NCBI GenBank assembly: GCA_964016885.1
Contig: OZ024743.1
Location: forward strand, 286,068,001 to 286,132,000
Length of the DNA: 64,000 nt
Source: Eledone cirrhosa
Taxonomy: Eukaryota
Direction of reading: 5' to 3'
In this document: positions 2 to 64,000 of the stretch, one piece after another
Layout: the number at the start of each line of letters is the position of its first letter
How positions within the stretch are numbered: the first letter of the stretch is position 1
The notes under the pieces: model-generated
Told to the model about the DNA's origin: nothing
Database searches by the model: none
What the model saw: the letters and a program-made list of their open reading frames with translations, nothing else
Made by a program: the position numbers and the translations under genes

Positions 2-271
2 TCTAATATCCATCGATCTGAAGAGACTTGTTTATCACAACATACAGAAAACTGTGATAAAGAGACAGAAAATCAGAAAGAATTACAGTTAATTTCAGTA
101 ACATCTGCAACAGGCAATATAAGTGAAGACAGTCTCAGCAATAATTCTGATGTAATAGAGATCTCCAGTACCATGTGCACAAATACAGACCCACCTCAAA
201 CATCAAATTCTCTACCATACCCTGTTAGCTTATTTTCAGTGAATGACGGTGGATATACAACTATAGAGTAA
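2..271 (+). CDS. 3' end of terminal coding exon of a tandem paralog of the STPR-BTB gene (5' part outside window)
   Basis: Positions 1-260 align ungapped to 16291-16550. Open frame SNIHRSEETCLSQHTENCDKETENQKELQLISVTSATGNISEDSLSNNSDVIEISSTM...GGYTTIE, stop TAA at 269-271. Confidence 0.85.
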   Translation, partial: SNIHRSEETCLSQHTENCDKETENQKELQLISVTSATGNISEDSLSNNSDVIEISSTMCTNTDPPQTSNSLPYPVSLFSVNDGGYTTIE

Positions 272-7790: not shown

Positions 7791-8444
7791 GAATACTTTA
7801 TCGTTATGTCTTGGTAATATAAATGTTCCTATTTATTGCTATAACTAAATTTCCATCTTTGTGAAAATATTCACATCATAACAAAATGTAACCTCAGAGT
7901 TGTTTAACAAATTCCCAAGGATACTGAATAGCACCGTTTTCGTACGTAAAATTATAACATGAATAATATAACAAATAGTACTAGCCTCGACATTTTATAT
8001 TTATTGTTATTGAGAAGTTATACACGAAATCAATATTGTTATACATAAAATTAAATAAAATACAGAATAATTGATAATTACTCCACCGTCTTTACTTTCC
8101 TCTTATGAAATACGTCTTTGAGTGTGACACTTGTAATAATCCAAACTACGTATCTCGGAAACTGGCGGAAACTTCCGAAAACAAATTCCTTTAAAAGGGA
8201 GGAAAATACAACAAAAAAAAAAGGAAATCAAAAATTCTGTTTGATTATCTGTGATGTCCCCTTCATTCTTGCTATTAATATATTTATTTATGTTACCATA
8301 TTGTTAATATCATCAGCATCAGAGTTTAGATTATCCAAGATTACAATACCTGTCTAATCTCGGATATTGCAGCATCAATCATCTTCAAAGTCGTATCATA
8401 TCGTTTTTGTTTTTTTGGGGGAAATCCGATTAAAGTAACAGATA

Positions 8445-8940
8445 ATGGCAAGACCAAAAAAGTACAAGACTGAAGCGGAAAAACGAGAGGCCAGGCGACA
8501 GCGTGAAAGAATTAAAAGAGCTAATGAAACACCTTTAGAGAGAGATCAAAGACTGATGAAACTATCTATGAATGAATGGAAACGGCGTCGAAGCGAATCA
8601 GCTGAAGAGAGAAATGAGAGACTTAAAAGGTTGTCTGTAAATGCACGAAAGAGACGAGCTAAGGAAACGATACAAGAGAGGAAAGAGAGGCTTAAAAAAT
8701 TGTCTGAGAGCGAAATGAGAAGACGAGCCAGAGAAACGGATGAAGAAAGAAAGAGAAGACTTCGGAAACTCGCTGAATATGCAAAGAACAAGCGTAGTTT
8801 AGAGTCAAACTATCATAGTACTCAACTGGGTAAAATGGCGCGAGACCGAAAGCAAAATTCTAATGGCATTAAAATCGATCTGGCCAGCTGTTTTGATGAC
8901 CAAGACAACAATTACCTGGAGCAAATACAACACGATCCTG
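8445..8940 (+). CDS. STPR-BTB gene exon 1: four tandem 23-aa STPR-type repeats
   Basis: Repeats ETPLERDQRLMKLSMNEWKRRRS / ESAEERNERLKRLSVNARKRRAK / ETIQERKERLKKLSESEMRRRAR / ETDEERKRRLRKLAEYAKNKRSL. ATG at 8445, phase-1 donor G|gtatct at 8941. Confidence 0.85.
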
Positions 8941-9607
8941 GTATCTCTCTCTATCTACTTTTGATTCATTTAAGGGTGATAATAACTAGCATGTATAAAT
9001 TCTACGATCGTCTTTTTATCTCTTATACTCAATATTTTCGTAAATACGAACTCAGTATTTATAAGCTGCCAGCGATTTCGTAATATTTTCAGCTATTTCG
9101 CTAGTGTCCGCGAAAATTTGGCATTAATATCATACAATCTCATTTTCTGTATTGAACTGAGATCTTGTATTTATTTTAAGATCTTAATGTTGATCTATTC
9201 TGTATTAATTTTTGTTTGTTAGGTTTGGACTTGTTTTACCTTTATTTATCCTATGATATTTTGACAACTTTTCACGCATGAATTATATTTCCTTAAATCG
9301 CTATTTCATCTCTTAGTGGCGTGTGTGTGATAGAGGAATCATTAATAAAGTTTCTTTTTCTTCCTACACGTCAACTCGTGGTGGAAAGAGTTGTCATGTT
9401 GCCACAGGCATCGTAAAAATAACAAGTGTTCATAATTTGAATTTTGCCAAAATACTACATTCCAATATAAATATTCGTAAAATGTAAACGGTCAGAATAG
9501 CGAAACACTTTTCTAGACTGTTGTTTGACAGGCACGCTAATCGGATGAAAAGTCGCTTTCGCTTTCAATATTTCCCCGTGACGCAACAGTGATAATGTAA
9601 ACAATCT

Positions 9608-9835
9608 CTCCGTTGCCTCTGCTTTCAAACTTGAATTGCATATAAGTTTGAAAACAGAGGCAACGGAGGAGTTCCAACTGAATCTTGTCCATATGCACAA
9701 GTCTTCAATATCCAAGTGGCTAAAAGGTGTCAGCAGGAGTCATGACTTGGATGCGGCACGGCTCCCTTCGAGTGCAAGTTAACGGCCGAAACACTTGCAA
9801 GAGAGGGGCTTTTTCTGCTGTCCAGCTCTCTCGAA
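9608..9835 (+). mobile_element. Dispersed repeat with terminal fold-back (homolog at ~22815-23065, - strand)
   Basis: 9640-9830 aligns to the reverse complement of ~22815-23065. Positions 9608-9668 form a 25-bp stem with one mismatch and an 11-nt loop. Confidence 0.65.
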
Positions 9836-10611
9836 ATGATTGAACTGAATTTTTCGCCTGTCTGCCACGAACGCTAGACTCTCACAAAATAGTTCTTTAA
9901 ACATTTTTTATTTTATTTAGAATGAATGAAATATAATTAAAAGTGAGACAAAAAAGGGTGAGACAAAAAAGGGTGAGAATAAATGTTCTAAATGGTTTAA
10001 TTCGTGCCAACGATTGTCTCTGTTTGTCTTCTATACGCGAATTGTGTGTGTGTGTAACCCACAAACAGCTTTGTTACAATTTGGTTAAGAAACCGAATAT
10101 TACTTATTATTCCCGTTTGTACTAGTAAAATATGAAACACGCACACGGGAAGTCATTTAATTATTTTTGTTACTTGGAGTTTCTTTTATATATCAAATAA
10201 TTTTCTATCACCTAAGTTACCAGACATATTAGCAATCCTGAAATTATAATTAATATAGTCAGCGTGAAAAAAAAAAAAAAAAAGAAACACCTAATACAGT
10301 TATCACTTAGATTTTTTTGTTTCTACTTTGCAATGGAATCCTTCATACATTTTCGCATCCTCGACTTATTGTTCAGAGCTAGGGTACACAATACCATCTT
10401 AGTTCGTATTTTATACGAAGCAAAAGAAATAAAAAATTAACAGTGTTGTAACTATTCAATCTGTTTGTATTATAAATAGCTCGCGATTCATTCAGAAAGA
10501 TATATTCTTTTAATGTTACAATATTAAAGAAAATGTAAAGGAAGGGGTGAACAACCGAGCCAACACCAGAGCAAAAGACAGCAACGTCGCGAGGAGTATT
10601 GGGCAATCTCT

Positions 10612-11025
10612 CTAATGATTTTTGAGTCGAGCCAGCACACTCGCAGCGTTGCCTCGGGTGATGGCGAGGCTGATGCGCTGAAACAGCCAAGCGCCCTCGC
10701 GAGATTCGCCAGTTACCTCTATTAGGCGAGCCGCCAGTGAAGAGAGGGACCTCGCAGTCAGCGGCCCGACTTCCCCAAACGTCTCGAAAGCCACAGGCTT
10801 AAAAATGTAGCTGGCCGACAGATCAGAGTATTTGTGTTACTCCGCTCCGCTGCGGAAGCTGTGGCTCTCGTCCTAACCGCAGCATCCAGGATGTAGGAAA
10901 GAGCAAAAGAGTCACTAACAATGACGTCCCAGACAAGGCACCTGCCTCTCGACCAGGGGCACAGGGTAAGGCCGTCAGGTCTTTTGCCGTCACTTCTGGA
11001 CAACCCAGATGGTTCCAAGACTGTT
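10612..11025 (-). mobile_element. CRE-clade non-LTR retrotransposon 3' fragment (restriction-like endonuclease)
   Basis: LEPSGLSRSDGKRPDGLTLCPWSRGRCLVWDV ... (frameshift) ... AFETFGEVG ... LFQRISLAITRGNAASVL matches the CRE RLE domain motifs. Confidence 0.8.
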
Positions 11026-11645
11026 ATGTATGAGGAAGCATGCATGGCTAAATGGTTAAATCGTTCACTTTGCAATCATAAGGACCTAGGTTTGATTCCA
11101 TGGCATAGCATCTTAGGCAAGTATTTTTACCATAGCTTCAGGTGAGTGAAACTGTCTAGAAGCCTTTCGGATGAATTGTACCTGTAATTCAAAAGCTCCC
11201 GCCTTGTCACATATTGTGTCACAGTTACAGCTTTGGAATGTTAAGGATATACATGACTATGGAATACTCAAGCACTTATATGTTAATTTAGAAGTTGGAA
11301 GTTTCATTCACATATAGAATGCATTACAGGAATTAACTCTAGCACTTGACTAGTACTTTATTTTATCGGATCCCAGTAGAATGAAAGGCAAAGTTGACAT
11401 GATTTGAACTCAGAACATAATGAAAAAGAGTATAATAAAATACTGTAAACATTTTGTTTGTTGTGTTAACGATTCTGTAATAAAAAAAAAAATAATAATA
11501 ATGAAAATGATTGTGCACTACAACTCATCAAAGGTGCATGTATATTACATAGAATAATGTACAAATACATGCACCTTTGATGTGTCGTAGTGCACCTGAC
11601 CACTACACAATAATTTTTATTGTAATTATTATTTATTATTACAGT

Positions 11646-11830
11646 GGATTGGCAGTATCGGTAGAGGGTCGGACGCCATGCTTTGCAGCAAAGAGTTATG
11701 GCCCTTTATGGTCTGAGTTCAAATCCCGCCAAGGTTAACTTTGCCTTTCACCCTTACGGGGTCGATAAAATAAAGTACCAGTAATGCACTGGGTAATTGC
11801 TGACCTTGTGCCAAAAGTAGAAACAATTAT
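11646..11830 (+). mobile_element. tRNA-derived SINE (Meta-domain-like)
   Basis: A box tggcagtatcggt, B box gagttcaaatccc, core gcctttcacccttacggggtcgataaaataaagtaccag. Near-identical copies at 21870-22052 and 25363-25548. Confidence 0.8.
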
Positions 11831-11929
11831 TACAGAATCATTAACACAACAAACAAAATGCTTACAGTATATAGTTATGCTGATATCAGGAGCATACAGT
11901 TCAACTTGTTATATGTAAGCAAGTATCTC

Positions 11930-12612
11930 CTCATCACCGTTTTACATCCATTCTTCCATGCTAGCATGAGTTAGATGGGTTGTCCTGTTGTGAGCAATGC
12001 CAGGTCGGGTGACCATGTCTTGCTGATACAGAACTGATTCTGGCTTGATTTCTACAGCTGGATGCCCTTCCTAACACCAACCTCATTTACAGTGAGTACT
12101 AGGTGCTTTCTTACCGTGGTGCCTACATGACCACTTTACAATGTGGACTGGGAGCTTTTTTGTTGAGGTACCTACACGACCACTTTACTATGGGAGGGGG
12201 TGGGGCATATTGTCTATATTCTTCAGCTTCAGCTTGTACCTGTGGGAAGTCGGGTCTTCTGTATTACTGCGTAACGCCAGAGGTCTCAGTCCTGTGTCAT
12301 CATCTTTGAGAGGTGCAATTGGGCAAGATCAGCTCTTATCGCCTTGTCCCAGGTCTTCTTGGGTCGCCCCACTCCATGCTTTCCATCTACTTTTAGTGCT
12401 CTGCACCTTTTTAGCAGCTGTCATCCTTCATATATGTCACATGTCCATACCAACATAATCTCCTCTCCTGCACACAACATTTGATTCCTCTTATGCTTAG
12501 TCTCTCTCTTAATTCGTTTATGCTTTGCCGTTCACATATTACACATCCATCGGAGCATGCAAGCTTTCTAATCTACGCAAGTCTTCTGCACACATCGCCC
12601 AGGTCTCACTAG
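11930..12612 (-). mobile_element. RTE-clade LINE 3' fragment
   Basis: Reverse strand reads 'ETWAM..EDLRRLE..MLRWM..LRERL..VQERRLCWYGHV..KKVQ' with a tgatga-type tail. Confidence 0.65.
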
Positions 12613-13174
12613 TAAATTATAAATGGGAAGCTATTATAGCCATATCTCTATTTTTTCATTTGTTAGTTTGATGACGTGGGATATTACCCTTAATCTGAAA
12701 GAGAGAAATAGCAAGGTGAGTTTATAAGTTGGTGGTAAGAGAGAAAATAAGTGCAGAGAAGAGGTTGTAGAGGAAATAATTTCTAGAAATGAAGGATTGG
12801 GACAAGTATATATCAGTAGAGATACAGTATGAGTGATGGTGACATAAAGTGAATTTATGTGGGATCAGTGCAGTTATAGAGGAAACAGAGACAGCACAAT
12901 ATGTTAGCTATTTGGTAGTTGTAGAATTAACTATTATATAAATGGCCTTTTATTGAATGTGGCACAGAATAATGATGATAATGATGAACAAGGTAGATGG
13001 TGGTGTGGAACAGCAATAATGATGATATTGATGAATATTGGACTTAAAAGACACTACCTAGATATCTTTGACACTTAAAAAAATCAAAATATACCTTGAA
13101 ATGGGAAATATGAACTATGCAAATATAGAATTGTTAATATTTTAAAATACTAATTTTTTATTGTTTTCATTCAG

Positions 13175-13412
13175 AAAATTCATTTGGATGTAACTCTCAT
13201 TTTACAGAGAAGTTTGAAGCTCTTATTGAAAAATCGGAACTGAATTCTATCCCATTTTCCCAACTCCATTGTGGTGAAAAAAGAAAATCGCAAAAAGTTT
13301 CAAATCAGAAACAGAAAACCAAAACCAGAACTCAGAGAAACCAATCAACCTCGGTCAACAGTTCTAACAAAGCAAATTCAAGATTATACCAAAATAGCAC
13401 CAATACAATGTT
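13175..13412 (+). CDS. STPR-BTB gene exon 2 (basic/polar linker)
   Basis: Acceptor ttttcattcag|, in-frame alternative acceptor at 13208, donor TT|gtgagt. Phase 1 to phase 2, stop-free ENSFGCNSHFTEKFEALIEK...NSTNTM. Confidence 0.75.
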
Positions 13413-13829
13413 GTGAGTGTTTTAAAAACATTTCTTTTAATGCTATCCATTCTTTTGCAAATGTCCATTGAGCTGGGTGTCCTTCCTACAGCTAGGCACC
13501 CAACCTAGAGGTAGAAATGGAACCTGTTTATCAAACAAGCAAACTGCAACAAGTGGAGTTGTGTTCCTTGCCCAAAGATCTTTAACTTTTCTTTACCATA
13601 TATCTAATGAAAGAAATAATTTTGAAAATAATTAAAAGTTTGAGGTATTTAGTAATTATAACTAACTTTCTCTTGGAACATAATATAACAAAGTTTCTTA
13701 CATAAAATTATAATTGAAGATTTTTAGATAAATAGTTTTGTATCATAGATACAGAGGCAGTTACAGACAATTTGTTATCAAAAAGGTTAACAAATATTCA
13801 ACAGTATCTTGATTTTATAAAAGAATTTG

Positions 13830-14215
13830 TTATATATTGTTAACCATCTTGCGTACCTTTTTGATTTCCATGTGTCTAACACACATGGGCATGCCCACAA
13901 AGTCAGAAAACACCACAGCTCCCATGACTTTCGGAAACATTTTTTCACGCTCCGAGTTGCTGAAGCATGGAACAAACTACCTGCATAGGTTGTTAGCTGT
14001 CAAGACACTGCATCCTTTAAAACCTCCATGCTTCTCGAGATTCGCCAACACTACACCTAATGTTCCCCCTACATACACATACACACATGTATATCATGAC
14101 TCATACACTATTCACTTCCCTGACATTTGTATATTATTCTATGTACTATACATGCACCTTTGATGAGTTGTAGTGCACTTGAGCACTTTACACAATAATT
14201 TCATTATTATTATTA
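13830..14215 (+). mobile_element. CR1/L2-group LINE 3' end
   Basis: Matches the C-terminus SNTRGH..KVRK..FRKHFF.LRVAEAWNKLP and 3' UTR of the 17829-19769 element, with an (ATT)n tail. Confidence 0.85.
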
Positions 14216-14320
14216 TATTGCTATTAATGTTACTATTAACGGTAATATTACACAGTATTGTTCATGTTACTATTAACTATAAACTAACTATTGTTGTGTT
14301 TTATGTTTTTGTACTTCTAG

Positions 14321-14498
14321 TCATTCTGTCTCCAGTGAAATCTTACTCCACTCACAATCAACTGCTCCTCCTATTCAGGAAAAACGAATTTTAGTGGTTC
14401 CAAATCACCAAGTGGCAGTGATGTCCAATTTATTTTCTATGTGGAAAGCTGGACGTTTGTGTGACTCATACATTAGTAATGGTACTACAAATATAATG
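14321..14498 (+). CDS. STPR-BTB gene exon 3 (N-terminal half of BTB/POZ)
   Basis: Acceptor ttttgtacttctag|, donor ATG|gtatgt. Encodes ...VPNHQVAVMSNLFSMWKAGRLCDSYISNGTTNIM, matching the BTB 'H...L..L...G.LCD' motif. Confidence 0.85.
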
Positions 14499-15511
14499 GT
14501 ATGTTATAACCTTCACTATAATATAGAATAAAACTATAATGATAATTGTAATGTTGATTTCTGACATAGGTCACAAATTTGTATTAGTATTTTACTGATT
14601 CTGGAAAGATGAAATAGGTAGTTGACCATAGGAGGATTTGAACTCCATACATAAAGAGCTGTAACTAAATGCTACAGAGTATTTTATTTGATGCTTTAAT
14701 TCTGCCAATCCTTATAATATTAAATATGAACAATCCAAGTTTTTTTTATCAAAAGATCAAATAACTGTGAAACTAACATGCAAGAGGCTGAGCATTCTAC
14801 AGGCATGTTCCCTTAACATAATTCTCATGGAGATTCAACTTGTTACTTTTTAGTCATAATTATTCTCTACATTCATTGTCAATATCTTACCACCATATAG
14901 CATGAATTTACATATATTTTATTTGTACTGATCTTTATGTAGGGATAGAAAGCTTTTGTTTCCAGCATATCTCAAATTGTGCTACCCTTCAGAATGTTAT
15001 CAGTTACTCCACTTAATTGTTACTCTAAAATGTAGTCAACTTTGTCGGAGTCATCATCACCATCTATCTTTTTACATCCACTTTTCCATGTGGGTATGGC
15101 TTAGATGAGAAGTTTTCTGGCAACAATTCTAGTCACCTTTTATAACTTGTAGGGTTACAGTGTGTGTATTCTGAAAACCAGAATACACATACTGTAGTTT
15201 AATTTTAGTCAAAATTATATTGCCACAGTGAAATCATCATCATCATCATCATCATCATTTAACGTCTATCTTCCATGCTAGCATACCTTTGTTGGTAAGT
15301 CTTTTGTATCTAAGATAGAACTGAATTTAGCAACAAACATTTGATAAATGGTCTTACCAAATACAAATGTATATTATTAAGTGGATGAAAATATATTTAA
15401 TATATGGAACATTAAAAAAAAAAAAGTAAAATGAAATATGCACTGAGAAAAATACAAACATTGCAATTTTTGCCACACTCATTCCAGATATATTTTATCA
15501 TATATTTTCAG

Positions 15512-16567
15512 ATTCATAAAATGGTTTTAGGAGCTATATGTCCAAAGTTATTGCCTGCTCTCCACTACTCATCAAAAGGTTCATTTCCCAAAGTGGTATT
15601 TCCAAGTTCGGTCAGTAGGGAAGGACTTTTAGCATTTATAGAATACATGTATAATGGTGTGTTAGATCTGAATGAAGATATTCTTGTCCAACTGAAGACT
15701 ATTGGTGAAAAACTAGAAATGAAAGATTTTGAAGAACTTTGTAGTAAAGAACTGAAGAAAGCTAAGGCTAAAAATATTTTATCAACTGTGGTGGAACCTT
15801 TGTTGGCAGAACCTTGTTCTTTATCAGGATTGTTCCCTTCTAGAAAACATGGAGACACTAACGAGGTGCAGAATTCTACATTGATGAAAATACTTGGAAA
15901 TAGTTACAATACTAGCATACAAACTGATGTTGCTGTTACTATTGCATCAACATCTAGATCCAATTCATCTTATGCTTCTGATGTAAGGTCTACAGAAAAT
16001 ATGACTACAAACCAGATTATTGATATCAAGACTGAAATGGAAACAGAGAAAGAGCCTGCACCAAACCAGAATTCTCTACAGTTAAAAGAAGAACCTTGCA
16101 GTCCTGATGAAAATCAAAATAGTATTCAAGAAGAAATGTGCATGGGTATTAGTACTTCCAATAACAATGTTCAGTTAAAACCTGCTGCCACTTCTGGAAA
16201 TATTAATAAAGACAATGAGTTAACAGTTACATATTCAAATAACCAGTATAGAAATGATATAAACATGGATTCCAGTGATATCATTGATATATCTGATATC
16301 GATCAATCTGAAGAGACTTGTTTATCACAGCATACAGAAGACTGTGATAAAGAGACAGAAAATCAGAAAGAATTACAGTTAATTTCAGTAACATCTGCAA
16401 CAGACAATATAAGTGAAGACAGTCTCGGCAATAATTCTGATGTAATAGAGATCTCCAGTACCATGTCTAAAAATACAAAACCACCCCAACATTCAAAATC
16501 TATTCCATACCCCATTAATCTAATTTCTGTACATGACAGCAAAAATACAAGTCATCAAAATGTGTGA
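15512..16567 (+). CDS. STPR-BTB gene exon 4 (C-terminal half of BTB plus acidic S/T/N-rich tail)
   Basis: Acceptor tattttcag|. IHKMVLGAICPK...SVSREGLLAFIEYMYNGVLDLNEDILVQLKTIGEKLEMKDFEELC matches BTB 'HK.VL.A', 'F..Y.Y.G.L' and 'L.M..L..LC'. TGA at 16565-16567. Confidence 0.9.
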   Translation: MHKMVLGAICPKLLPALHYSSKGSFPKVVFPSSVSREGLLAFIEYMYNGVLDLNEDILVQLKTIGEKLEMKDFEELCSKELKKAKAKNILSTVVEPLLAEPCSLSGLFPSRKHGDTNEVQNSTLMKILGNSYNTSIQTDVAVTIASTSRSNSSYASDVRSTENMTTNQIIDIKTEMETEKEPAPNQNSLQLKEEPCSPDENQNSIQEEMCMGISTSNNNVQLKPAATSGNINKDNELTVTYSNNQYRNDINMDSSDIIDISDIDQSEETCLSQHTEDCDKETENQKELQLISVTSATDNISEDSLGNNSDVIEISSTMSKNTKPPQHSKSIPYPINLISVHDSKNTSHQNV

Positions 16568-17670: not shown

Positions 17671-19752
17671 ATAATAACAATAATGAAATATTGTGTACAG
17701 TGCCCAGGTGCACCACAACTTATCAAAAAAAGTGCATGTACAGTACATAGGGCAATGCACAAACATCAGTAAAAGGAACAGTGCACGAGTCATGATACAC
17801 ACGTGTGCATGTGTATGGAAGGGGTACATCAGGTGTAGTTTTGGCGTATTTTGGGAAGCATGAGTGTCTTAAAGGATGCAGTGTCTCGGCAGCTAACAAT
17901 TGACGCAGGCAGTTTGTTCCATGCTTCAGCAACTCTGAGCGTGAAAAAATGTCTACGAAAGTCATGGGAGCTGTGCTGTTTTCTGATCTTGTAGGCATGT
18001 CCACGTGTGTTAGACACATGGAGATCAAAGAGGCACTCAGGGTTGCAATTGGCGAGATGGTTAAAAACTTTGTGGGTATTCACCAAGTCCATTGCCAGAC
18101 GTCGGAGCTTCAATGAATCCATGCCCAGGGAAGCAAGGCGTTCAGAGTATGGTAGGTGTCTTATGGAGGGTATGCGCTTGGTTGCACGTCTCTGAACAGT
18201 TTCCAGGAGGTCAATGTTCTGAGCAAGATAGGGGTTCCAGACTGATGATGCGAATTCCAAGTGTGGTCGTACCATAGCTGTATACAGTTTTAAATAGATG
18301 ACTGGAGAGCGGCTAACAAAGGTCTTGCTGAGTGATGCCAAGACACCCTCGGCCTTCTTGACAATCTTAGTGACATGCTTTGTCCAACGCAAATCGTTGC
18401 TGACAGTAATGCCCAGGTCACGTTCACAAGAGGACTTTTTGATATCAGTGTTGTGGAGAGAGTATGTGGACGCTGGATTTTTCCTTCCAAAATGCATGGT
18501 GGTACACTTGTCCACAGCCAGCTTCAGTTGCCAGTCTGTGATCCATTGCTGCATTGTGTCCAGGTCTGATTGTAGGAAAGAGTTGTAAATTTCAGGTTCA
18601 GTCCTTTTGATTTCAAGGTACAGCTTGATGTCATCTGCATATTTTAGTACCATGGCATTCTGTAAGTTGGCATCTATGTCGTTAATATATGCCACAAACA
18701 AAAGAGGACCAAGAACAGATCCCTGTGGTACACCAGATGACATCTCATATGGTGAAGAATGCTGTCCTAGAACCGTGACTACTTCTTTTCGGCTGAGAAT
18801 GAAGGATTTCAACCAGTCGAAAAGATCATCCCTCACACCCATTGCAGAGAGTTTTGCCATAAGTCTTTTGTGTGGCACAGAATTAAAAGCTTTAGCAAAG
18901 TCAAGGTAAACAACATCCACCCATGAGCCGCTGTCAGTGATCCGGGTGATGTCCTCAAGGAACTCGATAAGCTGATCACAGCAGCTGGAGTTAGGGATAA
19001 ATCCAAACTGTGAGGGCCGGATGAGGCTGTGAGAGCTCCAGAAGTTCCAAAGTGTTTCTCTGACACAGGATTCCATCAGTTTGGCCATACAGCTAGTAAG
19101 ACTGACTGAACGATAGTTGACAGGTGACATGCGGTTGCCCTTTTTGAACAGGGGAATGACACTGGCAGTTTTCCACTGCTCCGGAGTAGCACCATTGTTG
19201 AGACAGTATTGAAAGAAGAAAGAAAGCTGGCGCAAAAGGAAATACCCGCCACGTTTGAGAAGCAGGTATGTCACACCATCAAGACCAGGGGAGGCATAGT
19301 TGCGCTTATTCTTAAGGTGACGTCGCAACATTGCAGGTGTAAATTCCATAGTTGTTATGGAATTTGATGGTGGAGATGGTACATTCTGGTTTTCAACAGT
19401 AAAAATACTTGCATAGCACTCAGCAATGAGTTCTGTGCATTCCTTGGGATCGTCAGTGATCTGGCTTGTGTGGGGATTGCGAAGAGGACCAACTGGAGAG
19501 TGAGGTCTCTGCTTTGAATGAATATATTTCCAGAACACCTTACTGTCAGGATTGGTTGCGATGCACTGTTCAAATTCAAGCACTGCCTTCTTTGTCACTT
19601 GCTTGAGATGGTTCGAAGATTTATTCCGCTTTTTTCTGTTGGCATCTGATCTATGCAGTTTATATTCCCGTTCAGCGTTCCGACGTTCTTTCCTGGCAAG
19701 TCGGACCGCTGAAGTTTCCCAAATTGCACTTTTGGGGTGGTTATTTTTCTGC
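17670..19752 (-). mobile_element. CR1/L2-group LINE, 5'-truncated, RT reading frame open
   Basis: ORF 17829-19769 carries SPGLDG, NYRSVSLTS, QFGF, YLDFAKAFNSVPH, GVPQGSVLGP, YADD, ERDLG, RPHLE, RGH. No endonuclease domain present. Confidence 0.95.
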
Positions 19753-21500
19753 TTGTGGGTGTTTACCAAGTCAATTGCCAGACGTCAGAGCTTCAATGTA
19801 TTCATGCCCAGGGAAGCAAGGCGTTCAGAGTATGGTAGATGCCTGATGGAGGGTATTCGCTTGGTTGCACGTCTCTGAACAGTTTCCAGGCGGTCAATGT
19901 TCTGAGCAATATAGGGGTTCCAGACTGGTCATACAAATTCTAAATGTGGCCGCACCATCGCTATATACAGCTTTAAATAGATAGCTGGAGAGCAGCTGAC
20001 AAAGGTCTTGCTGAGTGATGCTAAGACACCCTCGGCCTTCTTGACAATTTTAGAGACGTGCTTCATCCAACCCAAATCGCTGCTGACCGAAATGCCCAGG
20101 TCACGTTCACAAGAAGACTTCTTGATATTAGTGTTGTGGAGGGAGTATGTTGACGCTGGGTTTTTACTCCCAAAATATATGGTGGTACACTTGTCCACAG
20201 CCAGCTTCAATTGCCAGTCTGTGATCCATTGTTGCATTGTGTCCAGGTCAGATTGCAGGTAAGATCTATAGTGTCCAGGATCTGTCCTTTTATCTCAAGG
20301 TACAGCTTGATGTCATCTGCATATTTTAGTACTGTGGCATTCTTTAAGTTGGCATCTATGTCATTAATATATGCCACAAACAAAAGGGGGCCAAGAACAG
20401 ATCCCTGTGGTACACCAGATGACATCTCATGGTGAGAAATGCTGTCCTAGAACCGTGACTACCTCTCTTCGACTGAGAATGAAGGACTTCAACCAATTAA
20501 AAAGATCATCCTTCACACCCATTGCAGAGAGTTTTGCCATAAGTCTTTTGTGTGGCACAGAATTGAAAGCTTTAGCAAAGTCAAGGAAAACAACATCCAC
20601 CCATGAGCTGCCATCAGTGATCCGGGTAATGTCTTCAACAAACTCGATAGGTTGATCACAGCAGCTGGAGTTAGGGATAAATCCAAATTGCTAGGGCCGG
20701 ATAAGAGTGAGAGTTCCAGAAGTTCCAAAGCGTTTCTCTGACACAGGATTCCATCAGTTTGGCAATGCAGCTAGTAAGACTGACTGGACGATAGTTGACA
20801 GGTGATGTGCGGTCACCCTTTTTGAACTGACACTGGCAGTTTTCCACTGTTCTGGAGTAGCACCATTGTTCAGACAGAATTGGAAGACATGTGATAGCTG
20901 GTGCAGAAGGAAGTACTCACCACGTTTGAGAAGCAGGTACATAATGCCATCAAGACCAGGAGAGGCATGGTTGCGTTTATTTTTAAGGTGATGTCGCAGC
21001 ATTGCAGGTGTAAATTCCATAGTTGTAATAGAATCTGATGTCAGAGGTGGTGGAGACAGTACACTCTGGTCTTCAATAGTGAAAATGCCTGCATAACATT
21101 CAGCAATGAGTTCTGCGCATTCCTTGGGGTCGTCAGTAACCTGGCTTGTGTGGGGATTGTGAAGAGGCCTTTGCTTTGAGTGAACATACTTCCAGAACAC
21201 TTTACTGTCAGGGCTGGTTGCTATGCGCTGCTCAAATTGAAGCACTGCCTTTTTTGTCACCTGTATGAGATGGTTGGATGATTTATTTCGCTTTTTCCTA
21301 TTGATATCTGATTTATGCAGTTTGTAATCACGTTCAGCATTATAACGTTCTTTTCTGGCAAGACAGACTGCTGCAGTCTCCCAAATTGCATTTTTGGGAT
21401 GTTTTTTCTGCTTACATGGCACCGATGCTGCACATGCTGTCTATATTGAGTTCAGGATGTTCTGGAGTACAGTGTTGACATCTCCAGAGTCGTAAAACTC
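19753..21500 (-). mobile_element. Second, older frameshifted copy of the same LINE, joined head-to-tail
   Basis: Colinear similarity to 18075-19752. RT is broken into ORFs 20754-21422, 20207-20425 and 19929-20237. Confidence 0.9.
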
Positions 21501-41524: not shown

Positions 41525-42805
41525 TAATAATAATGACATATTGTGTACAGTGCTCAGGTGCACTTCAACTCATCAAAAAGTGTATGTATAGTACATAGGG
41601 TAATGCACAAACGTCAGGAAAATGAACAGTGCATGAGTCATGATATACACGTGTGCATGTGTATGGAAGGGGTACATCAGGTGTAGTTTTGGCGAATTTT
41701 GGGAAGCATGAGGGTTTTAAAGGTGTCTTGGCAGCTAACAACTGACGCAGGCAGTTTGTTCCATGCTTCAGCAACTCTGAGCGTGAAAAAATGTTTCCGA
41801 AAGTCATGGGAGCTCTGCTGTTTTCTGATTTTGTAGGCATGTCCACGTGTGTTAGACACATGGAGATCAAAAAGGTGCTCAGGGTTGTTGTTGGCGAGAT
41901 GGTTAATAACTTTGTGGGTGTTTACCAAGTCCATTGCCAGACGTCGGAGCTTCAATGAATCCATGCCCAGGGAAGCAAGGCGTTCAGAGTATGGTAGGTG
42001 TCTGATGGAGGGTATGCGCTTGGTTGCACGTCTCTGAACAGTTTCCAGGAGGTCAATGTTCTGAGCAAGATAGGGGTTCCAGACTGATGATGTGAATTCC
42101 AAGTGTGGTCGTACCACAGCTGTATACAGCTTTAAATAGATGGCTGGAGAGCGGCTAACAAAGGTCTTGCTGAATGATGCCAAGACACCCTCGGCCTTCT
42201 TGACAATCTTAGAGACATGCTTTGTCCAACGCAAATCGCTGCTGACAATAATGCCCAGGTCACGTTCACAAGAGGACTTCTTGATATCAGTTTGTGGAGG
42301 GAGTATGTGGACGCTGGATTTTTCCTCCCAAAATGCATGGTGGTACACTTGTCCACAGCCAGCTTCAGTTGCCAGTCTGATCCATTGCTGCATTGTGTCC
42401 AGGTATGATCGTAGGAAAGAGTTGTAGATTTCAGGATCAGTCCTTTTGATTTCAAGGTACAGCTTGATGTCATCTGCATATTTCAGTACCGTGGCATTCT
42501 TTAAGTTGGCATCTATGTCATTAATATATGCCACAAACAAAAGGGGACCAAGAACAGATCCCTGTGGTACACCAGATGACATCTCATATGGTGAAGAATG
42601 CTGTCCTAGAACCGTGACTACCTCTTTTCGGCTGAGAATGAAGGATTTGAACCAGTTAAAAAGATCATCCCTCACACCCATTGCAGAGAGTTTTACCATA
42701 AGTCTTTTGTGTGGCACAGAATTAAAAGCCTTAGCGAAGTCAAGGTAAACAACATCCACCCATGAGCCTCTGTCAGTGATCCGGGTAATGTCTTCAAGGA
42801 ACATC
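41525..42805 (-). mobile_element. CR1/L2-group LINE, 5'-truncated, antisense in intron 5
   Basis: High identity to ~17680-18962. YLDFAKAF, GVPQGSVLGP and YADD present, with two compensating small deletions. Confidence 0.95.
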
Positions 42806-43419
42806 AATTTTTCCACAGTTGCATAGGTTAGATAGGTCGTTCACGCTGGGAGGCAAGTCTGGCCAGGGTTAGACATGTGTTGCACCTTGCTCTAGCGAGG
42901 ACTGTAATTTGGCTGGGTATATTACAGCTGGATGCCCTTCCTAACACCAACCATGTTTCTGTAATACAAATCCTCCTCAAACATCCTTGTCGCAGTACTG
43001 GCAGGCATTCAGGTCAGGTGCGAAATGGCTTGCCTGAAATCCAGTATGTATCTGCTTCAGGATCCAGCAACAATTGGTGCCATTGACCTCTGCAACTGCA
43101 AATAGCTTACGCAAGTATCTGCCTTCTCTGAAATCCAAGACACACTTGTCTTGATATTTAGTGGTTTCCTTTGTTGGTATTCCTACTGCTATTGTTGACA
43201 TTCAACAGGAAGAAGAGCTGCTATGAATCACATTATCCCAATATGTGTATGCTTGTGGCTGGAGACTGCCTGTGAAAATCAGATCATCATCTCCATAATG
43301 AGACTGTAATCATGAATCTACATACACTACACATCAGAATACAAACAATGCTGTGCATCAATGGGAGCCAACATACTTGTTCTTCAAACAGAACAAGTGG
43401 TAATTATGCAAGCTGAATT

Positions 43420-55195: not shown

Positions 55196-56720
55196 TATAA
55201 TAATAGTAATAATAAATTGTTATTGCACCATTCTCCTATATAACTTTACATCTTGTGTCTAAGAAATCAATAAGGTAGCGAATTGGTTGAGTCTTTAGAG
55301 TGGTGGATAGGAATACATTGTCATATTTCTTTGTACTCCCTGCGCTCCAAAGTCAACTTTGCCTTCATCCTCTCGGGATCGATAAAAACACAAGTCAAAG
55401 CACCTTCTTCCTTCCTTTCTTATTTATTTGGTTATCTGAATCGGCTACTTTGTGGTGTGTAAAGGGTCGTGGGAGACAATTCAGAGTGTCCCTTTCTCCA
55501 TTTCTGGTGAAAGCGTAAGCGAGGTGGGGGTTAAGCGACCTCTTCTAATCGAAAATCTATGTTATTTAAATCGTCCAAGGAAGGGATGACGTGCAGTACA
55601 GCACGGAACGATCTAAAAAGTAATCAATATTTTAACGAGCACAGCAGTGCTGTGCTATCTATTTAATATATAAGTGACTTGGGCTATTTGAAAATTATCT
55701 TGGTCATAGGACACATAATACTGTTGGTGACGCAATATGAACTAATCAACTATATATATATATATATAGATCGACTCAGTAACTGTTTTAAGGAAAGAAG
55801 AAAAGGTAGAATTTCACTGTCCTGACATTTCTTGTCAAGGTGACCTTTATGTAAATAACAGTTTCTTACTTAGTTACGAAACTTGAGTATTTATAACGGG
55901 CTGTGTCAAGAGTATTAGTGGCCTAACACTGAATAAGCGAAAAAGGGTCCTTGACTGTGATCGCCGGGTATGGAAACTTACTCCAACGATAATTGTTGCC
56001 ACTCTACTGTATTAGAGACAATGATAATGATAATGCACTGATGATGATGATCAGTTGCACTAGTAGCAGTAGCAGCAGCAGCGTCTTTGTACAATACAAA
56101 AACATTACGATAAAATACAATACAGAATCACTGACACACACACACACTTATACATGCATACATACACACACATTCCAGAGCTGTATTTGTTTGGCATGGG
56201 ATTTGATTTGAGATCGTTTGCTGCGACTAAAACAGTGATGTAGTATTAAACACAGAAACATACTTATATTCATTTTTTTACTTTATTATAATTTTTAGAA
56301 TTATTTTTCGGCATCAAAGTTTCCAGCGTACATCTATCTAGATCATGGTCACCGACATTCTACTTTACAGTATGACATATATTCACACATAGATAGATAT
56401 GTAGATAAAATAAGTCCCTGTCAACTATTATGAATAGTTATTCGATATACTTCTTCCCCAAGTATGTGATCAATGACAATTTTAGAAACAAATTATTAAG
56501 TAAAGTAAGTAAAGAGACACATTTCGAAATAGATAGAAAAAAAAAGACACGGTCAGTTGAGGTCTTATGATATACACTATTATTTTGTGCTAATAACAAC
56601 CACAAGTGGCCAGGAAGTAGATAGACATTTTTTTTGTAGGACTGCGAAGAAAAGGGAGGAAAAAAGTTGCTTATTTTACTAAATTAATGTCATGCCAACT
56701 GTTTTTAGTTCAGCAGTACG

Positions 56721-58002
56721 ACACTTCTCTCCATACCAGGGAAGGTCTATTGTCTGGTGATCCTGAACCGCATGCGTGGCATGGTAGACCAGGAACTGCG
56801 AGAACAACAGGCAGGGTTCCGACCAAAACGTTCCTGTGCAGAGCAGATCTTTACGCTACGCCGCATCATTGAGAGGTACAACGAATTCCAGAGACCCCTC
56901 GCCATCAGTTTCATCGATTTCTCCAAAGCATTCGATAGCATTCATCGACCGTCGCTCTGGAGCATCATGCATGAGTATGGTCTACCCCAGAAAGTCATTT
57001 CGGCAATCAAACAGATTTACGCAAACTCCAAGTGCTGCATACGGACAGAGAATGGTTACAGTGACTGGTTTGAGGTGGTTACTGGCGTGCGTCAAGGTCG
57101 CTCTCTCTCTCCAATTCTCTTTGCCATAGCCATTGACTGGGTACTAAGAAGAGCGTCTAAAGACCAGGGTATATCTTGGGTGGGAGAGCAAAAGTTGTCT
57201 GACCTGGACTTTGCGGACGATATTGCTGCACTTGCAGAGAGCACAGCTGACTTGCAAATCATTGTGAACAATATCAATGTCGAAGTAGGAAGCGTAGGTC
57301 TCAATATCAGTGCCAAGAAGACCAAAAGCATGTTATCAGGGACACACCCACCACCAACCAGTGTCTTCATTGAACAGGGGGAGGTTGAGATAGTGGACAA
57401 CTTCACCTACCTAGGAAGCTCCATTAACAATGAGGGCACCATGGACAGTGAACTGCAATGTGGAATGGGAAAGGCTTCAGCAGCATTTAACCAGCTTGAC
57501 AAGATCTAGAAGAGCAGGAAGTTCACCCTCAAAACAAAGATGAGATTCTACAACAGCAACGTGCTGTCCACACTCTTGTACGGAAGTGAAACATGGCACC
57601 TTAAGACCAGCCAAGAGAAGAAGTTGGACGCATTCGATTCCAGATGTCTGCGAAAGATCCTGGGGATTAAATGGAGTGACCATGTAACAAACCAGGAAGT
57701 CAGGAACCGCACCGACCAGCAGCTAGTCTCTTCTACTATCTCCAAGCGACGCCTGGGCTGGTTTGGACACGCTTTGAGACTTCCCCCCGGAGAGACTGGC
57801 GAACCAAGTACTTAAATGGAGCCCGCAGAGAAGCAGACGGAGAGGGCGACCCAAAAGGAGCTGGCGCCAGACAGTTGAGAGGGACCTGCGAACGACAAAC
57901 AGACAATGGCGGGACGCTGTGCAACTGGCTGCTGACCGAACGCGATGGAACACTATGATTGCCTCATGCGTCGCAAGATGCGGGAGCTTCTGAGTCTGAG
58001 TG
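56721..58002 (+). mobile_element. Young 5'-truncated RTE-clade LINE with 6-bp TSD
   Basis: TLLSIPGK, QAGFRPKRSC, FIDFSKAFDSI, GVRQG, DLDFADD, FTYLGS, LLYGSETW, WFGH, RGRPK. One in-frame TAG (57507) and one frameshift (~57785). (CTGAGT)-type tail. AGTACG flanks at 56715-56720 and 58003-58008. Confidence 0.92.
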
Positions 58003-59879: not shown

Positions 59880-61695
59880 AGACGTTTCTGCCCCAGTAGA
59901 CCCATAAGAGGTAGACCCCCCACCATAACCTCAATGGCAAAAAAGACTCCCATGGGAAGGTAGATTGGGTGGACCAAAGCTATACGGACCCCCCAAACAA
60001 TGATCAGGTAAGAAAAATGATCGCACATGCAATAGGAGCTAGTATCAAAACCACCCTAAAGGGCCACATATTCAAATTCAACGAGAAGATCTACACCCAA
60101 AATGAGGGAGCAGCTATTAGCGTCAGCATAGCTGGTGACGTTGCCAACCTTTTTATGGTATGGTGGGAAAGGAAACTCAAAGATCTCCTTGATGAGAGCT
60201 CCATAGACCTCATCATGTACTCTCGTTACGTAGACAACATCAATATAGTAATAAGGACATCCCCACAAGAGAGTACTAACAAGTTTGATTTAGAACGTAG
60301 CACAATGGAAAACATCCAGCAGATAGCTAATTCCATACACCAGAGTATAACTGTAACTATCGACTACCCTTCCAAACACCCTAACAATAGACTACCTGTA
60401 TTAGACACGGAACTCTGGATTAACACTATAGACGAGAGAGCCCAAATTCTCCACTCACACTATGCTAAACCCATGGCCTCCAAATACCTGATACTCAAAA
60501 ACTCAGCAATGTCCAGTAGTGCTAAGTTTAATATTCTGATCGCAGACTTGGTACGAGTGATGTGCGACCCAACAGAAATGGAAAGACACATCCAACACTT
60601 CATCAACTGCATGCAGTTCTCTGGCTACAACCAAAGAGACAGAATCAGAGTATACGAAGGAGCCACGGAGAAGTATAAGACCCTCATAGAACTGGACATG
60701 AAAGGAATTGGCCCATTATATAGGAGCAAATCATGGAATAGCTTAGATAGGACTAGACATAAGATAGGGAAAGCCACCTCATGGTACGACAACCAGAGAT
60801 ACCAGAGTGTCATGTTTGTGGACGCTACCCCTGGAGGGAAATTAGCTAACCAGTGTAGAAAGGCCCTGAGAAAGACCCACTTAAAGATTAAGGTGGTAGA
60901 AAAGCCAGGAACCACCATAAAATCCCTGATCAGCAAAACCTACCCTTTTAAGAAAACCCACTGTACTAATAGGAAATGTATTATATGTAAAGTAAACCCC
61001 CGGATAAACTGTAAAACTAGAAACGTAGTCTATAGCATAAGATGTACAGAGGGTACTTGCAGAAACATGACAACAACATACATAGGCGAGACAGCTCGTA
61101 GCATAGGTGAAAGGATAGACTAACACTGGCGGGAACTAAACGGACGAAAAAATGGTTCAGTACTATACGAATATGCCAGACATGCCAAACATAGAAATGA
61201 CCCAGCAGATAGGCAAATCAGAGAGGCCAGCGAAATAGAAGTTAGAAGGCCAAGGCTAAACAGAAAAAATGAATGGAATAACAACAACACCCAAACAAAC
61301 AATACTGACCTAAGAGAAGTATAAATAAATAAATAAATACATACACGAGCACAATAACAACAAACACATATAAACACGCACTAGTAAACTAAGATAGAAT
61401 ACAATAACCAATACACAGTCACCCAAACACGAACACACATCAAACACTACACACACACACACACGCAAACGCATGCGCAGAGAAGACAAAAAAAAAATAA
61501 ACAGACTAAATAAAGATGGCATAGGCATACAATACAACGGAAGGAAACATAATAGCACCACTGACGATGTTGCAGATGTGCAACGAAAGAACTTTGTTAG
61601 ACTATATATATGTGTTTGTGTCTATATTGTAACTGTATTTTTGACCGTTGGTCAGTCAATGGTAACATTGAGGACCGAATAAATTAAATTAACCG
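59880..61695 (+). mobile_element. Penelope-like retroelement (RT + Cys-rich linker + GIY-YIG), 5'-truncated and inactivated; probably Naiad-type
   Basis: FKFNEKIYTQNEGAAI, YSRYVDNI (YxDD decayed to DN), LPVLD, FVDATPGG, CxxxxCxxC..C, VVY..YIGETAR. Premature TAA at 61121 is followed in frame by RQIREA..P.LN.K.EW. Hammerhead remnant in the 3' region. Confidence 0.9.
61556..61600 (+). ncRNA. Hammerhead ribozyme motif in Penelope 3' region (stems I/III decayed)
   Basis: CTGACGA-t-GTTGCA-gatg-TGCAAC-GAAA. Perfect stem II, weak stems I and III. Confidence 0.55.
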
Positions 61696-61796
61696 ATATA
61701 AAAGACACAGAAGCGAAAACCAACCAAACAATGAGTGTGTTCTGTTATTAATTCTGGCAATATTATTACACAAATATGACCCTCCCCAAGTATAAC

Positions 61797-63479
<1,683 letters not shown>

Positions 63480-63480
<1 letters not shown>

Positions 63481-64000
63481 CAGACCTACTGGCTGTTACC
63501 CAATGGGCAGAGAAGAACAACATGTTACTGAACGAAGACAAATTCGAACTGATCCACTTTGGAAAAGAGGATGCTCTGAAACTCCCGTACTCCCTTCCCT
63601 CCGGGGAAACTCTCGTGGCATCTAACAACATCAGAGACTTGGGAGTAACCGTGGACAGCAACATAAGCTGGACCACGCATATAAGCAGCAAAGTTGACAT
63701 GGCCCGCAGAATGTGTTCCTGGATCCTCAGAACCTTCCAGTCGAGAGATTCCCGCACCATTATCCTTCTCTTCTCTACTTTCGCCCGACCACACCTTGAA
63801 TACTGTTGTCCACTGTGGTCTCCCCACACGAAACAAAGTATCATGAAACTTGAAGCTCCTCAAAGGGCAATCACGAAAAAGATAGATGGCATGTCAGACC
63901 TTGACTACTGGGGTCGATTAGAAAACCTGAAACTTTACTCACTCCAACGTCGCCGTGAGCGTTATATTATCTGCATGATGTGGAAAATGTTCCATCATCA
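63480..64000 (+). mobile_element. CR1/L2-group LINE RT C-terminal part (different family), runs off window
   Basis: Open frame [63 protein letters not shown]. Confidence 0.9.

Follow-up and report, generated by a model that had tools for sequence, protein, structure and literature searches.

The 64,000-nucleotide stretch of Eledone cirrhosa DNA analysed here (the window; contig OZ024743.1 of assembly GCA_964016885.1, positions 286,068,001 to 286,132,000) carries on its forward strand a gene that joins STPR repeats to a BTB domain. As first modelled, its four exons are flanked by AG and GT, total 1968 nt and encode a frame of 655 amino acids up to the stop. Coding exon 1 (8445..8940) holds a basic start helix, four STPR repeats and a linker, and ends in a phase-1 donor, beyond which its reading frame continues for 47 codons. 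It is likely preceded by a 5' untranslated part (8261..8444), as judged from relatives and a paralog, since contigs of sequencing runs X1, X3 and X8 continue from there into the coding part. Exon 2, which encodes a linker, had been started at 13175; the stretch 13175..13207 is in frame but unsupported, because the 11 residues it adds are missing from orthologs P0003 and P0012 and a spliced contig of the paralogous copy C uses the downstream site. Exon 2 therefore most likely spans 13208..13412, giving a protein of 644 amino acids. In exon 3 (14321..14498) the BTB domain opens at about 14382 with its N-terminal strand and first helix, placed by ortholog interface residues, and exon 4 (15512..16567) encodes the BTB core (15512-15766) and then an acidic Ser/Thr/Asn-rich tail to the stop. 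Of the four-exon, 655-residue model in the first-pass annotation, the splice-site dinucleotides, the summed length and the frame thus hold, and the exon-2 acceptor is the part to be revised.

The four exact 23-residue repeats claimed for exon 1 were recovered in the same register (8526..8801, plus strand; residues 28-119, predicted to be DNA-binding helices). Exon 1 scores 59.2 bits against the Pfam family STPRs (PF21107; cut-off 27), and its self-identity reaches 37 at a lag of 23 against 16 or less at the remaining lags from 15 to 31. All four repeats keep E1, T/S2, R6, R9, L10 and R/K20, a set whose STPR residues are described as stabilising or phosphate-binding in the accessible text of PMC4856987, where Glu1, Thr/Ser2 and Arg9 are given as the hallmark of each repeat and the STPR domain of FMBP-1 is said to cover 4 bp per helix. 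The exon aligns without gaps to the FMBP-1 structure (PDB 5d23, E 1.1e-9). Among the positions with which FMBP-1 reads bases, S14 is found in three of the four window repeats, A17 in two, Y16 in one, and M13 (Leu instead) and L21 in none; with these residues altered, the DNA target is probably unlike that of FMBP-1. A structure model of the ortholog has five helices at a predicted local distance difference test (pLDDT) of about 90 in the repeat region and is poor outside it (mean pLDDT 42 for the full-length model), and a fold search with the full-length model gave no match at E 0.001. The STPR clusters retrieved from the ESM Atlas, at 0.87 or less, offer a lead only. By sequence, the window protein is a member of the STPR family.

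The split of the BTB domain over exons 3 and 4 also stands: the exon-4 part alone passes the Pfam BTB threshold (28.0 bits, cut-off 20.5), and the start strand and helix lie in exon 3. The inverted domain order, with STPR N-terminal and BTB downstream, is confirmed, as is the absence of zinc fingers, none being present in exon 4 by Pfam scan. Both of the SUMO-consensus motifs reported for the acidic tail (15% Asp+Glu) were found, IKTE at 16025-16036 and LKEE at 16082-16093 (together 16025..16093, plus strand; putative), and one or two motifs of this type occur in the tails of six of the seven relatives checked. With its BTB internal and without C-terminal C2H2 fingers, the window protein is not a ZBTB; no BACK or Kelch domain is listed for its orthologs, and KLHL-type BTBs score about equal to ZBTB ones against the family profile. 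Residues 258-395 of the ortholog, its BTB domain, were modelled as a homodimer with a score of 0.75 (best control 0.00), the runs agreeing in at least 98% of contacts at pLDDT of at least 86 and the first strand contacting the partner chain. The mark used for calling a dimer was passed by 21 of 30 solved pairs and none of 23 single chains in a microbial benchmark, and by 17 of 29 pairs and none of 30 single chains in a eukaryotic one. The dimerising BTB of the first-pass annotation is thereby predicted for the ortholog, possibly through likeness to BTB dimers already solved.

A protein search with the exon-4 BTB retrieved nine proteins out of 115 candidates, each of them from Octopus or Argonauta, six combining STPR with BTB and three a Tc5-type domain with BTB. 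Orthologs in other cephalopods thus carry the STPR exon, namely in three Octopus species and Argonauta, where the fusions appear in RefSeq/GenBank as uncharacterised predictions; the O. sinensis and O. bimaculoides orthologs (XP_036357333.1 and XP_014774311.1) match the full length of the model at 75.6 and 75.4% identity. The earlier statement that no described STPR-BTB protein is known agrees with searches of non-subscription papers, which found nothing on the combination except one unrelated palaeontology match, and needs amending for the databases. Exon 1 DNA has three matches in the 3.0-Gb assembly, all inside a BTB cluster, and across the repeats simple codon counting gives a ratio of non-synonymous to synonymous substitution (dN/dS) of 0.32 in the comparison with copy C and of 0.29 with copy B. 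Because of these three genomic copies and this purifying selection, exon 1 is not a repeat fragment, and the possibility raised earlier that it might be a high-copy piece of a transposable element does not hold.

Transcript-like evidence comes mainly from run X8, the type of which is not on record. A single 1209-nt contig aligns intron-free to 8330-8752 and 13207-13412, with 59 and 18 differences from the window copy, which itself differs from copy C at 57 and 18 positions; the five exon-1 letters listed all agree with copy C, and copy C exon 1 ends at record position 676, exactly where the second piece of the contig begins. The paralog copy C is spliced from exon 1 to exon 2 via the downstream acceptor, and its joints between exons 2 and 3 and between exons 3 and 4 are indicated only by matching depth and length. 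Another X8 contig equals window exon 4 at 15980-16248 with zero differences, and pieces of runs X1-X3 lie on exons 1, 3 and 4 with an identity of about 85-90%, no displayed piece bridging a junction. No RNA records are listed for exon 4, which is uninformative on expression. Of the joints that link exon 1 to the BTB exons, on which the first-pass annotation had made its model depend, the exon 1-2 joint is spanned by a contig for copy C, and no displayed piece spans a joint of the window copy. The window gene is real and intact, and we infer the splicing of this particular copy.

The exon-4 BTB has 21 genomic matches, and six BTB units stand in tandem within about 135 kb, ending at the window gene. 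The tandem paralog reported upstream is confirmed as copy C, with an STPR exon of its own about 7.1 kb before the window start and the 3' end of its last coding exon at 2..271 (plus strand, open frame to the stop; placed by the exon map); what had been taken for a pair is a cluster of six units. The last three units have STPR first exons, the unit just before them has THAP, CG-1 and CENP-B/Tc5 exons, and the first two have Brinker/Tc5, CENP-B/Tc5, FLYWCH, THAP and CG-1 exons. Variable heads are a property of the family, of which the window gene is a single-first-exon member. Within the cluster, the BTB part of window exon 4 (15512-15766) is near-identical to that of copy B (G000:C4:286055616-286055870; synonymous divergence, dS, of 0.04) while other parts differ (dS 0.16-1.05), which indicates recent gene conversion. 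The same part looks homogenised in the O. sinensis orthologs P0001 and P0003, and the O. vulgaris model P0002 combines the first three exons of one unit with the last exon of its neighbour, through read-through, rearrangement or annotation error.

Elsewhere in the family, DNA-binding exons of several kinds (THAP, CENP-B/Tc5, Brinker, FLYWCH, psq, CG-1 and Crypton) precede paralogous BTB cassettes. Domain-only queries from other species gave 43 DNA-binding-domain matches on the sense strand and none on the antisense strand in four BTB-linked regions, and none in four flanking regions (194 kb); orthologs of the array exons are among the queries, a bias towards matches in these regions that does not extend to their strand. 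At the O. sinensis locus LOC115209617, three isoforms have a common C-terminal stretch of 473 amino acids behind STPR, Tc5 or CENP-B+Tc5 starts, and at LOC106872008 of O. bimaculoides two isoforms have 471 amino acids in common. A common BTB body behind different starts makes STPR one interchangeable head. LOC115209617 is a candidate ortholog of copy C, but with its exon 1 63% identical as against 65% to the ortholog of the window gene, we class it as a close paralog; among the candidates scored in the Eledone genome, none is an ortholog of its Tc5 first exon (best 52%).

The largest array in Eledone lies at G000:C4:234.66-234.79 Mb, where 19 short frames, chosen by open-reading-frame scan and Pfam (THAP, CENP-B/Tc5, DUF3504, psq and zinc fingers; some below cut-off), precede one BTB cassette. 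For 18 of the 19 exons, the donor that scores best downstream of the domain is in phase 0 (binomial P 3e-8; donors ranked by a scoring table), and the constant acceptor is also in phase 0; among the 11 exons with a mappable annotated isoform, nine end exactly at the predicted donor base. In O. bimaculoides the orthologous locus, LOC106877732, has isoforms numbered to at least X36. An identical C-terminal stretch of 534 amino acids, the BTB body, is found in all 25 isoforms examined, and 20 of the 24 scanned have a Pfam DNA-binding domain (THAP, CENP-B/Tc5, FLYWCH, Brinker, psq or DUF3504). A short shared exon of the large locus (G000:C4:234758112-234758285), with several acceptors, takes all of the distal first exons and seems to provide the last part of THAP domains that are split. 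Nine co-oriented matches to DNA-binding exons, orthologous to LOC106877732 first exons, lie on the unplaced contig C581 (L093-L100, G000:C581:27423-77761), in 80 of the 88 kb of which, the part fetched, no BTB was found; the gap at C4:234660713 may be the place of this contig. For the first exons missing from the large locus, trans-splicing from a distant site had been considered. Since these were found co-oriented on C581, an assembly gap is more likely, and as all the exons that were found are co-oriented, trans-splicing is not required. On other chromosomes, more distant BTB paralogs also have long Crypton-type DUF3504 frames upstream (L051:4768-6354 and L052:1646-3043).

The range of the family was explored with a profile of 16 paralog BTB exons searched against 1.84 billion representatives, which gave 92 matches at E 1e-10. 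In the top-ranked matches (38 scanned) the BTB is internal and follows a THAP, CG-1, DUF3504, FLYWCH or STPR-like start, and the named members belong to Octopus, Argonauta and the cuttlefish Acanthosepion; in a protein cluster that contains cuttlefish, 698 C-terminal amino acids are common to THAP and FLYWCH starts. In a 54-row BTB tree, with long branches flagged and a root for drawing only, the window gene falls within a clade of 33 rows (99/96) that excludes an oyster group, and three internal-BTB cephalopod rows (P0101 and P0113 as a pair) branch outside that clade at an unresolved fork. "Coleoid-specific" is used as a working label. The lineage-specific family of dimerising regulators suggested by the first-pass annotation survives as a family of internal-BTB proteins with a predicted dimer; STPR is not its defining feature. 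Related proteins with N-terminal BTBs have Ets, BEN, DUF3504, piggyBac-type finger or Brinker domains at the other end.

At least 176 matches to STPR repeats were found in the genome, and Helitron body sequence was present at 14 of the 18 top non-paralog STPR loci fetched (12 of 16 distinct places). At one of them (L004) STPR and Helitron_like_N lie in a single frame, and Helitron Rep/helicase proteins (L004:1435-3264 and L014-L031) start with STPR repeats; no literature pairing STPR with Helitrons was found in searches of non-subscription papers. In other paralogs the STPR first exon can be aligned with Helitron N-termini beginning at its start Met (P0015, 45%, E 3e-16; L039, E 2e-10; L047, E 3e-8). 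Exon 1 of the window gene is not a Helitron element or fragment, there being three copies and no adjoining Rep/helicase body, and no Helitron body was matched in 70 kb around the BTB cluster. The Helitron bodies at most of the top STPR loci and the alignments of the other paralogs make a Helitron origin likely for the STPR cassette type, and the window exon itself may have come from a Helitron. The best STPR score in the genome belongs to an intact frame of 225 amino acids on the minus strand (L013:1357-2031), perhaps another host STPR gene. Elsewhere in the genome, dozens of decayed Tigger-like copies lie within a few megabases at G000:C25:19.3-23.9 Mb, and the window has reverse-transcriptase-type frames at 17832-19784, 41680-42840, 56709-57812, 59915-61120 and 61752-63998, two of them Pfam-confirmed and the last broken by a 1.7-kb AT-rich microsatellite.

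The closest known designs are mod(mdg4) and lola, for which at least 30 and 20 isoforms around one BTB body are reported (PMC11426971, accessible part). Paralogous octopus loci resemble them in having one BTB body and dozens of isoforms with differing DNA-binding domains, FLYWCH included, whereas the octopus order is mirrored: the first exons vary and the BTB downstream of them is constant, for which reason the head is likely chosen by promoter and not by 3' or trans-splicing. The octopus loci also have more domain kinds per locus, with all exons found on one strand. Fly BTBs are of the TTK type, a motif that the accessible part of the same source reports as absent from Mollusca, and the window gene has a single first exon; it is not a mod(mdg4) ortholog. 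The oyster locus LOC133187093 (P0121, P0234-P0237) supplies the next-ranking BTBs of the profile search and has several isoforms as well, but lies outside the 33-row clade and keeps the fly-like, BTB-first order; it is lola-like, its five isoforms having 502 N-terminal amino acids with the BTB in common and differing zinc-finger ends. With Bombyx FMBP-1 and with ZNF821 the window protein has in common four exact 23-residue repeats that keep E1, T/S2, R6, R9 and L10, and it differs from them in that its STPR is N-terminal, fused to BTB and equipped with other base-reading residues.

Fusions of host and transposase sequences of the KRABINER type, in which a transposase DNA-binding domain has repeatedly been spliced to a host regulatory domain (bioRxiv 2020.05.07.082677, accessible text), offer a second comparison. 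Low copy number, intactness, purifying selection and conservation across species are traits of such fusions that the window gene has; traceability of the DNA-binding exon to a transposon is weak for window exon 1 and clear for several paralog exons. The octopus family differs in using BTB and not KRAB, in the many captures per locus, the Helitron-type STPR among them, and in being invertebrate. KCTD1 isoform b owes its alternative N-terminus to a DUF3504 exon of Crypton type that was inserted ahead of a BTB gene (PMC3212892, accessible text), but that is one capture on a KCTD-type BTB, with no array and no STPR. BTB on Octopus THAP and CENPB factors has been noted before (Mukherjee and Moroz; PMC10027918), and in the accessible tables of that paper LOC106877732 stands 11 times and LOC106872008 at least once. 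There the entries are handled as separate factors and BTB as a part of the transposon, and the main text, as far as accessible, does not contain "isoform", "alternative", "STPR" or "Helitron". Searches outside subscription papers found no description of these BTB exon arrays; the accessible parts of PMC12111275 and PMC12062965 hold nothing on this BTB family, and the domain-pair table of the latter might list such fusions. A mirror-image mod(mdg4)/lola system of coleoids is thus apparently undescribed.

We consider it probable that the intact octopod gene in the window codes for a likely transcription factor and is a single-head member of a coleoid family of BTB genes with variable first exons, fed by transposon capture. 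By analogy with the FMBP-1 rule, the four-repeat STPR head would wrap about 16 bp along the DNA major groove; the BTB dimer would place two such heads on DNA, and the acidic tail would recruit co-regulators, and it is in this sense that we infer DNA binding, dimerisation and a regulatory role. The family would grow by capture of a DNA-binding exon from a transposon landing upstream of a BTB cassette, with pogo/Tigger, P/THAP, MULE/FLYWCH and Crypton as proposed donors and, for STPR, probably a Helitron N-terminus. It would also grow by tandem duplication of whole units. At array loci the head would be selected through the promoter used, and a common BTB body would make mixed dimers possible there. 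Several observations weigh against this reading. The isoform evidence consists of predicted database models from other species, none of the 32 displayed pieces (of more than 25,000) crosses the window copy's own junctions, and a single DNA-binding exon was found ahead of the window copy and of copies B and C. The base-reading positions M13, Y16, A17 and L21 of FMBP-1 are mostly altered. The dimer mark was passed by only one of seven eukaryote pairs without a solved relative, and as BTB dimers have been solved many times, the pass of the ortholog may reflect these known structures and shows likeness. Finally, window exon 1 is only weakly Helitron-like (34%, E 8e-4) and matches the host protein FMBP-1 better than it does Helitrons, and at its best local match, L013, no Helitron body lies within the 3.2 kb fetched.

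These last points bear on the origin of exon 1, which under one alternative, with gene and family unchanged, was shuffled from an older host STPR gene of the FMBP-1/ZNF821 type and not from a Helitron. This is doubtful in our view, and yet to be reckoned with. It would account for the gapless four-repeat match to FMBP-1, the weak match to the Helitrons of the genome and the exon start MARPKKY, which differs from the Helitron start at L004 and L024, and STPR host genes are widespread in animals (PMC4856987, accessible part); it sits less well with the facts that most of the top STPR loci in the genome are Helitrons, that the STPR exons of other paralogs look directly Helitron-derived and that the remaining cassettes of the family are transposon-type domains. 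A role of the protein as Cullin-3 ubiquitin-ligase adaptor or as dominant-negative BTB sponge, with basic repeats that bind RNA or protein and not specific DNA, is unlikely: the lack of any listed BACK or Kelch domain, the phosphate-contact residues kept in all four repeats, the established DNA-binding folds of the sister cassettes and the recurrence of SUMO-type motifs in the tail argue against it, and the similar profile scores of KLHL-type and ZBTB BTBs and the altered base-reading residues speak in its favour. Very improbable is the proposal that exon 1 forms a gene by itself or is left over from a transposon, the fusion being a prediction artefact and the arrays transposon debris. The frame running 47 codons past the donor, a genome rich in Tigger and Helitron pieces and the lack of a junction read for the window copy would fit it, but it is opposed by the spliced contig of copy C, orthologous fusions in four species, the 43 to 0 strand bias of the DNA-binding exons, the agreement in donor phase and exact junctions, and purifying selection on exon 1.

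Novelty in cephalopod gene regulation is tied mostly to expansions of zinc fingers and protocadherins. As a capture-fed BTB family with variable first exons, the genes described here would add a third route, in which one dimerising body is combined with a large and fast-changing set of transposon-derived heads, and they would represent convergence on the fly mod(mdg4)/lola design in reversed order. A bolder version, to which we give a little short of even credence, is that coleoids independently built a mirror-image mod(mdg4), with BTB loci as landing pads for DNA-binding domains of transposons, about 30 or more first exons at one locus, each chosen by promoter, a steady turnover of them from species to species, and, in the STPR members, the first Helitron N-termini to be domesticated as transcription factors. 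If so, a BTB common to all isoforms would permit hundreds of mixed dimers, a combinatorial transcription-factor code, and the STPR domain itself would be a Helitron-borne DNA-binding module. Published counts of Octopus THAP and CENPB "genes" include isoforms of one locus. The family would suit tests of how transcription factors are born through transposase capture and of DNA recognition by Helitron STPR, for which the window gene, as a simple single-head member, would be well suited.

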